IMG/VR virus record: IMGVR_UViG_3300032308_002010
Location: 64,001 to 128,000 of that record
Length of the DNA: 64,000 nucleotides
Reading direction: 5' to 3' (one strand)
Source: a virus
Shown: positions 51,458-51,558 of the stretch, one piece after another
Layout: every line of letters starts with the position of its first letter
How positions within the stretch are numbered: the stretch's first letter is position 1
Translations under genes and position numbers: made by a program
The notes under the pieces: generated by a model
What the model was told of the DNA's origin: nothing
Database searches by the model: none
What the model saw: the letters and a program-made list of their open reading frames with translations, nothing else

Positions 51458-51558
51458 TACGCCCGCAGGGAATCGAACCCCGACCTACAGGTAATCAGCC
51501 TGTATCCTTTCGGACCGAGAATATAAGTCTCGTGTGCTAACCGTTACACCACGGGCGC
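51458..51558 (-). tRNA. trnI: Atypical 101-nt tRNA-Ile with two anticodon-like arms (UAU and GAU)
   Basis: Normal acceptor, D and T arms. Three hairpins lie between D and T: CGAGA-CTTATAT-TCTCG, GTCC-GAAA-GGAT and ACAGG-CTGATTA-CCTGT. Confidence 0.75.

Follow-up and report, generated by a model that had tools for sequence, protein, structure and literature searches.

A phage tRNA-Ile-like gene with a UAU anticodon arm and a conserved GAU hairpin in its variable region

Introduction

AUA is the one sense codon that nearly all bacteria read only by way of the essential lysidine modification (TilS), and bacterial isoleucyl-tRNA synthetase (IleRS) is built to reject a UAU anticodon. The kcat/Km of the Escherichia coli enzyme is 360-fold lower for UAU than for LAU (PMC3575796). 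Mycoplasma mobile reads AUA with a tRNA-Ile(UAU) and without lysidine, and it does so through a change in the enzyme, as its IleRS has Arg865 in place of the usual Trp (PMC3575796).

Several kinds of tRNA carry sequence beyond the standard cloverleaf. In class II tRNAs (Leu, Ser, Tyr and Sec), extra helices leave the core between positions 44 and 48, where the variable region reaches 10 nt or more. Class II arms are single hairpins with loops of 3–5 nt and, to our knowledge, are confined to these isotypes. Intron-containing tRNA genes, whether with group I introns as in bacteria or with bulge-helix-bulge introns as in archaea and eukaryotes (eukaryotic tRNA-Ile(UAU) among them), likewise have extra sequence inside the gene. 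Engineered allo-tRNAs carry a copy of the cognate anticodon arm in the V-arm of a tRNA with a different real anticodon. This engineered pseudo-anticodon enhanced aminoacylation in E. coli, in a synthetic system for His that needed an extra anticodon-binding domain fused to the synthetase (Mukai 2020; PMC7590224, section 2.6).

Our full-text literature searches found no natural tRNA with two anticodon-type arms. One paper applies the term second anticodon arm to the variable arm of tRNA-Ser in chloroplasts (PMC10228390); we regarded this term as a misreading and set the paper aside as a precedent. Here we describe a phage tRNA-Ile-like gene that encodes a UAU arm and, in its variable region, a hairpin with a GAU loop.

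Results

Gene and predicted fold

The DNA analysed is a 64,000-nt stretch (the window), corresponding to positions 64001–128000 of a 193,815-bp IMG/VR virus record with 53% G+C and a CheckV completeness of 95. An Rfam scan matched a 101-nt gene on its minus strand to the tRNA model RF00005 with 53.9 bits (gathering score 29, E 8e-9, model positions 1–71), and aligned some 30 nt that follow the anticodon arm as a variable-region insertion. No other Rfam family rose above threshold in positions 51400–51620. The minimum free energy (MFE) fold was the same as the centroid fold (−39.3 kcal/mol, z −2.5) and comprised a 7-bp acceptor stem, a D arm, a T arm and three central hairpins, here called arms 1, 2 and 3. 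The parts of the gene are as follows.

51458–51558, minus strand: whole tRNA-Ile-like gene, 101 nt, without an encoded CCA, with G1.U72 and discriminator A73 (RF00005, fold, homologues, covariation)
51552–51558, minus strand: 5' strand of the acceptor stem, tRNA positions 1–7, paired with 51459–51465 (4 of 7 pairs changed on both sides among homologues, none broken)
51534–51549, minus strand: D arm, GUGU / 8-nt loop with GG / GCAC (Rfam alignment, fold)
51516–51532, minus strand: arm 1, the probable decoding arm, 5-bp stem CGAGA/UCUCG and 7-nt loop CUUAUAU with U33 and A37 (Rfam-aligned anticodon arm)
51523–51525, minus strand: UAU anticodon of arm 1
51504–51515, minus strand: arm 2, a GNRA hairpin of G.U plus UCC/GGA with a GAAA loop (fold)
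51487–51503, minus strand: arm 3, the putative pseudo-anticodon arm, 5-bp stem ACAGG/CCUGU and 7-nt loop CUGAUUA (fold)
51494–51496, minus strand: GAU triplet of arm 3
51483–51486, minus strand: AGGU, the core part of the variable region (sequence reading)
51466–51482, minus strand: T arm, CGGGG / UUCGAUU / CCCUG (Rfam alignment, fold)

An earlier note had read this order of three central hairpins (a UAU arm, a GAAA hairpin and a GAU arm, followed by AGGU) from the letters, and the Rfam alignment and the fold agreed with it to the base. Its arithmetic was also correct, in that removing either 29-nt block leaves a 72-nt cloverleaf. By standard tRNA numbering, the U of AGGU can form the Levitt pair 15–48 with A15.

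In its default mode, ARAGORN missed the gene. With introns allowed, the program called a tRNA-Ile(gat) from which it removed a 30-nt 'intron', leaving a mismatch in the spliced stem. We rejected this intron reading because of that mismatch, because the insert is located outside the anticodon loop, beyond position 43, and because we saw no sign of a splicing motif. The earlier suggestion that 29 nt are removed to yield a 72-nt species is not supported either: the insert follows a complete anticodon arm and is far too short for a group I intron, and no bulge-helix-bulge pairing was seen when judged by eye.

Comparison with known tRNA types

The variable region of the dual-arm gene is 33 nt long and forms two hairpins, beyond the 4–5-nt variable loop of class I tRNAs. 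Like the class II arms, it leaves the core at positions 44–48 and exceeds 10 nt (33 nt in the window and 22 nt in a shorter relative, L100, described below). Unlike them, it holds two hairpins rather than a single short-loop one, occurs with an Ile anticodon rather than a Leu, Ser, Tyr or Sec isotype, and includes one hairpin with the dimensions of an anticodon arm (5 bp, 7 nt) and the sequence of a cognate anticodon.

The intron-containing genes differ in another way, as the phage insert follows the whole anticodon arm and leaves its loop uninterrupted; we found neither an insert in the loop or at 37/38 nor a group I core or, as judged by eye, a bulge-helix-bulge. The likeness to the engineered allo-tRNAs is that an anticodon arm of the cognate isoacceptor is copied in the variable arm, where CUGAUUA or CUGAUAA on a 5-bp stem matches the loop pattern of tRNA-Ile(GAU), in this case by a natural design and for Ile. 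The phage tRNA also shares two problems with that of M. mobile, namely that IleRS dislikes U34 and that AUG may be misread. In contrast to the change in the M. mobile enzyme, the phage gene has a 33-nt variable region with a GAU loop in the tRNA itself, and neither of the two phages scanned (G000 and G001) has an IleRS-type gene.

Independent copies and diverged homologues

The 101-nt gene was identical in IMGVR_UViG_3300031857_000015 and differed by one base (AGGU to AAGU) in IMGVR_UViG_3300012000_000039. Identical or near-identical copies were also present in JGI metagenome contigs, the MAG contig RGVZ01000259.1, ENA assemblies and Logan contigs. In two runs, one from a 2019 and one from a 2021 study, the Logan contigs spanned the tRNA together with the adjoining HNH gene, and none of the best-supported differences listed for them lay inside the tRNA. 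Thus, the concern raised in the earlier note that the layout might be an assembly error can be dismissed, as the same gene was found in separate assemblies from several studies. The other concern, a lack of homologues, does not hold either, since diverged homologues with covariation were found.

A 5.2-kb contig with the dual-arm tRNA was present in a 5.3-Mb MAG (G002), which as a binned phage fragment is weak host evidence. When the tRNA cluster (by megablast) and the 101-nt gene and L100 (by blastn) were compared with cultured phages, only unrelated T-arm and tRNA-Lys matches were returned, and these searches found no isolate with a known host. No RNA runs were listed for the dual-arm locus; one run (X19) carries the label RNA-Seq, although it probably consists of DNA, and was available as contigs only.

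Two diverged lineages carried the same architecture. In A2, a second freshwater phage lineage, the gene (L056 4122–4222) begins 5 nt after a tRNA-Val gene and is identical in four further ENA assemblies. In the A3 lineage, a 100-nt version (L061 535–634, the same as G001:C1:321586–321685) lies in a complete 572-kb phage (G001) with terminal repeats and 41 tRNA matches, and L061 scored 57.7 bits against RF00005. The window gene differs from A2 at 8 positions and from A3 at 23 (23% divergence). Folded separately, all three sequences gave the same six-helix MFE fold.

To these sequences we added the one-base variant (L019, or A1', with the window as A1), and aligned the four by hand with one loop gap over 30 base pairs. 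Twenty of the pairs were invariant, one showed a one-sided change and nine had changed on both sides (four in the acceptor stem, one in arm 2, three in arm 3 and one in the T arm); none was broken. All 89 of 89 cells were paired, as against 78.8 ± 2.4 in shuffles, and 1 in 20,000 shuffles reached 89, a figure to be read with the small number of sequences (four or five distinct) and their relatedness, which inflates shuffle tests, in mind.

Pair 49:65 of the T arm is C-G in the window and G-C in L061. In arm 2, a U-A pair is replaced by C-G in L056 and also in the Logan contigs of runs X4 and X19, and the 572-kb phage has a GUAA loop on a stem with one pair fewer. Arm 3 of that phage had three of its five pairs changed on both sides (GGAGU/GCUCC versus ACAGG/CCUGU), and its loop motif CUGAU(U/A)A was kept despite the stem replacement. 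The AGGU segment reads AAGU in L019 and L061. The stem and anticodon of arm 1 were invariant in the four dual-arm sequences, which makes this arm uninformative for covariation; its loop is CUUAUAU, or CUUAUAA in L061 and L100. The D stem was constant across five related sequences except for U13 to C in A2, so that it contributes one pair with a one-sided change only.

The compensatory changes, together with the same arm 2 exchange in the X4 and X19 contigs, indicate that both extra hairpins are maintained as hairpins. Judged by this pattern of substitutions, the dual-arm structure is conserved and under selection.

A shorter relative (L100 7446–7538, 93 nt) shares the D arm as well as G1.U72 and A73, and was called by ARAGORN as tRNA-Ile(tat), from which it follows that the program accommodates its extra 22 nt. 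Its 22-nt variable region may form a 4-bp hairpin with the loop CAGAUUA, in which A replaces U33. The GAU-displaying fold has −27.7 kcal/mol, against −28.7 kcal/mol for the MFE fold. Since this hairpin lies 1 kcal/mol above the alternative, we counted L100 only weakly as a member of the family. Most matches of a flank-motif scan (L028–L051) were chance matches in coding DNA, as were L052, L054, L055, L058–L060 and L101.

The segment after arm 1 (GGUCC...) resembles AGGUCG... (the variable loop and the start of the T stem) after arm 3, and this resemblance fits a deletion that fused two tandem genes. If the gene were a dead relic of such a fusion of neighbouring tRNA-Ile genes, or of an internal duplication, and no longer used, it would be expected to decay. 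Instead, no helix was broken over 23 differences, nine pairs had changed on both sides, and the gene has been kept in three phage lineages and many samples. We therefore consider a relic extremely improbable, and the tandem-duplication pseudogene that the earlier note had allowed for does not fit, as the gene has changed in the way a maintained structure does and not like a decaying duplicate. As to how the architecture arose, stepwise growth of a variable arm appears at least as likely as a fusion of tandem UAU and GAU genes, given the single-hairpin L100. A scan for the gene's 3' half found no canonical tRNA-Ile(GAU) donor.

Two side observations concern the homologues. Directly downstream of the A2 tRNA, a 69-aa ORF (L056 4246–4455, plus strand) had a weak hit to the S4 RNA-binding domain (PF01479). 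No counterpart lies beside the window tRNA, and a search with this ORF gave identical copies only and no new variants. In addition, G1.U72 and A73 were present in almost every tRNA-Ile allele (window, L005, L013, L056, L061 and L100), whatever the anticodon or architecture; the 71-nt allele of L004, described below, is an exception with G1-C72.

Alleles and HNH gene at the locus

We fetched 23 related loci, using a nearby glycosyltransferase gene as the anchor. Between the genes for tRNA-Val(UAC) and tRNA-Glu(UUC) lies a variable slot with the following contents.

Window, L007, L019: dual-arm gene
L005: Ile2-like tRNA(CAU) whose acceptor stem and flanks are the same
L013, L056: canonical tRNA-Ile(UAU)
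L004, L006, L008, L018, L010, L012: 71-nt UAU tRNA-like gene without a D stem (L004 14688–14758; L010 about 13885–13955; L012 about 13828–13898)
L009: none of the other alleles in the inspected part

The 71-nt allele consists of a 7-bp acceptor stem, an invariant 16-nt segment (GGAAACCGGUUGGCAA) that replaces the D arm, a 6-bp anticodon stem with UAU, and a T arm of the usual form. Three versions of the anticodon stem exist that differ completely in sequence and yet are all paired, and the acceptor and T stems covary too. ARAGORN missed this allele in all six loci, and it fell below the RF00005 gathering score in at least five of them; for L004, no RF00005 match was listed even up to E 10.

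The dual-arm gene of the window is flanked by further features.

50887–50917, minus strand: 3' remnant of the 71-nt allele, with the T arm and the 3' strand of the acceptor stem (slot alignment with L004 and L006)
50889–51457, plus strand: HNH endonuclease gene that ends, with its stop codon, directly at the tRNA's 3' end (ORF 50801–51457)
51571–51611, minus strand: G+C-rich hairpin of 16 bp that lacks a U tract and whose end lies 12 nt upstream of the tRNA (found before every slot allele)

The HNH gene matched the Pfam families HNH_3 and HNH, both below the curated cut-offs, as well as PHROG HNH families. Comparison with relatives showed an insert of about 50887–51457 that is absent at the site in L019, L004 and L006. 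Contigs of runs X14 and X19 join 50885/50886 to 51565 and so bypass both the tRNA and the HNH gene; at the X19 junction, 72 other letters lie between the two sides, which is the length of another allele. The HNH insert, the 71-nt remnant and these junctions indicate that AUA-decoding alleles have been exchanged at the slot, at least once together with a homing endonuclease.

A rival reading is that the 29 extra nt are a tolerated passenger: inserted at the only site where a tRNA puts up with extra sequence, they would make the allele immune to the neighbouring HNH homing endonuclease, and the allele would spread by co-conversion and not through any advantage of the GAU loop. The HNH gene does abut the tRNA with the remnant of the displaced allele just beyond, and the X14 and X19 contigs bypass the two together, with the length of another allele (72 letters) in X19. 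However, neither L019 nor L056 has an HNH-sized ORF beside its dual-arm gene, and the compensatory changes in arms 2 and 3, like the retention of the GAU motif over 23% divergence, would be unexpected if the extra sequence were neutral. We consider a passenger improbable.

In the upstream 16-bp hairpin, which may serve as a signal for processing or termination, L006 has both bases changed in three of the pairs relative to the window. The tRNA cluster of the window ends with a phage-encoded tmRNA (49909–50256, minus strand; 127.7 bits; tag GAYAPALAA), which is conserved in relatives with varying predicted tags. Near the tRNA clusters of relatives, Rfam matches to abiF RNA (RF03085, 44.6 bits) and DUF3800-VIII RNA (RF03075, 40.5 bits) were found at the following loci.

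L006 2971–3006; L018 880–915; L010 16918–16992: loci of the abiF and DUF3800-VIII RNA matches

The 572-kb phage carries three further tRNA or tRNA-like genes, which hint at stop-codon recoding.

G001:C1:30802–30894: 93-nt CUA (amber) tRNA
G001:C1:286240–286310: UCA (opal) tRNA
G001:C1:105720–105801: 82-nt tRNA-like gene with a 16-nt 'anticodon loop', uncalled by ARAGORN

Which arm decodes

By its sequence, arm 1 with UAU is the likely anticodon arm. In every member of the family, it has U33, UAU and A37, and A26 directly precedes it, as in a normal anticodon arm; the dual-arm gene thus combines a UAU anticodon with A37 and A73. A 7-nt loop with U33 and a purine at position 37 is found in arm 1, and in arm 3 only in L056 (A2), where the loop reads CUGAUAA, the canonical form with A37. 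In A1 and A3, position 37 of the GAU loop is U, as the earlier note had correctly cautioned for the window copy, and the loop is 8 nt long in the 572-kb phage (A3).

The gene content of the phages bears on the same question. Besides the dual-arm gene, the window phage has eight tRNAs, seven of which carry U34 and decode codons that end in A (Thr UGU, Leu UAG, Leu UAA, Glu UUC, Val UAC, Lys UUU and Gln UUG), and AUA makes up 301 of the 2468 Ile codons in 131 long ORFs (12%, or 5.9 per 1000). In relatives, the same slot holds other AUA decoders, namely the Ile2-like CAU tRNA and the UAU tRNA-like genes, which favours UAU decoding. A canonical tRNA-Ile(GAU) is encoded by the 572-kb phage itself, in whose fetched parts ARAGORN detected no canonical tRNA with UAU. 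L056 holds the dual-arm gene plus a canonical tRNA-Ile(UAU).

The last phage speaks for the opposite assignment, in which arm 3 is the real anticodon arm, either of a tRNA-Ile(GAU) that has gained arms 1 and 2 as an insertion at 26/27 or of a two-headed, alternating tRNA in which either arm stacks on the D stem, so that AUU, AUC and AUA are all covered. L056 already has a canonical UAU tRNA, and its GAU loop is canonical; both arms have the dimensions of an anticodon arm, and arm 3 followed by AGGU looks like the anticodon arm and variable loop of a standard tRNA-Ile(GAU). Several observations oppose this assignment: U37 in two lineages, the 8-nt loop in a phage that itself carries a canonical tRNA-Ile(GAU), and the A in place of U33 and the stem of at most 4 bp in L100. 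An insertion at 26/27 would also disrupt the stacking between the D stem and the anticodon stem. Taken jointly, the two versions of GAU decoding seem highly improbable. What stands of the function first proposed is the reading of AUA through UAU without TilS, the most economical function. The idea that both arms decode, with one molecule serving three Ile codons, is not supported, in view of the U37 of the window copy, the 8-nt loop of the 572-kb phage, the display of GAU in L100 only on a 4-bp hairpin with A for U33, and a UAU loop that is canonical in every member.

Discussion

The dual-arm gene is probably a functional AUA-reading tRNA with an extra module under selection. For the module as part of the whole, our best explanation, to which we give somewhat less than an even chance, is a TilS-independent tRNA-Ile(UAU) in which arm 3 acts as a pseudo-anticodon in cis for IleRS.

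According to this explanation, the gene would be expressed and processed into a tRNA in which arms 2 and 3 are retained rather than removed, and which is charged with Ile. Arm 1 would read AUA, and AUA decoding by the phage would not depend on lysidine. Arms 2 and 3 would leave the core between position 44 and AGGU, at the site of the class II long arm, where arm 3 would show the ordinary anticodon loop of tRNA-Ile(GAU). By offering the preferred G34-A35-U36 loop to the anticodon-binding domain of the host IleRS, and thereby contacting the enzyme, arm 3 would help the enzyme to capture and charge a tRNA that, because of its U34, is a poor substrate for bacterial IleRS. No class Ia synthetase (PF00133) was matched in either phage (G000 and G001), so the host IleRS must charge the dual-arm tRNA.

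That IleRS recognition is the module's job is a tentative view, which we consider doubtful on balance; and that a GAU arm was grafted into the variable region as a natural pseudo-anticodon, so that a U34-rejecting host IleRS captures and charges a UAU tRNA, is possible but rather unlikely. By analogy with the engineered allo-tRNAs, a GAU loop on a hairpin as large as an anticodon arm would be suited to this task. That the loop of arm 3 is under selection is suggested by CUGAU(U/A)A on differing stems and by CAGAUUA in the variable region of L100.

The geometry of the enzyme sets a constraint. IleRS acts as a monomer and has a single anticodon-binding domain; being a class I enzyme, it binds tRNA with the variable side turned to the solvent. 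Given this geometry, arm 3 could reach the domain only by a swap with arm 1 or by capture followed by handover. U37 in the GAU loop also means the loss of the t6A37 determinant that E. coli IleRS uses. Moreover, close relatives that presumably have the same hosts use UAU tRNA-like genes without a GAU arm. These relatives, together with L056, which has both a dual-arm and a canonical UAU tRNA, indicate that the GAU arm is not indispensable.

A rival reading, to which we give low confidence, is a tRNA-Ile(UAU) that reads AUA in the same way and whose GAU hairpin serves another partner. The hairpin might divert or block a host toxin or anticodon nuclease that targets tRNA-Ile, or offer a modification enzyme something to grip; it might also be a purely structural brace, with the GNRA hairpin docked on a helix. 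The loop motif of arm 3 stays constant while the stems change, and the armless relatives show that the arm is not required for charging as such. The locus turns over fast, with four kinds of AUA-decoder allele and an HNH gene, as expected of a conflict-driven trait. GNRA loops such as GAAA and GUAA are classic tertiary-contact motifs, and the arm 2 loop is of this type in both forms, which suits a brace. On the other side, no Ile-specific nuclease or defence gene has so far been tied to these phages, and a brace leaves unexplained why the loop copies the anticodon loop of a tRNA cognate for the same amino acid.

The present analysis contributes a series of alleles at one locus, a link to HNH insertion and covariation evidence for a maintained two-hairpin version. 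The pairing of UAU with a displayed GAU loop suggests a third solution to the AUA problem, one that lies in the tRNA rather than in the enzyme. If this is true, AUA decoding would need neither TilS nor an adapted synthetase, and the GAU arm would be the first natural aminoacylation identity element that acts in cis from outside the anticodon position. It would also show by what rule nature keeps decoding apart from recognition by the synthetase, a separation that synthetic biologists have until now had to engineer, and it would explain a class of phage tRNA genes that ARAGORN in its default mode missed here. Even with another partner, this tRNA-like gene would keep a two-hairpin, 33-nt variable region under selection in an isotype outside class II.
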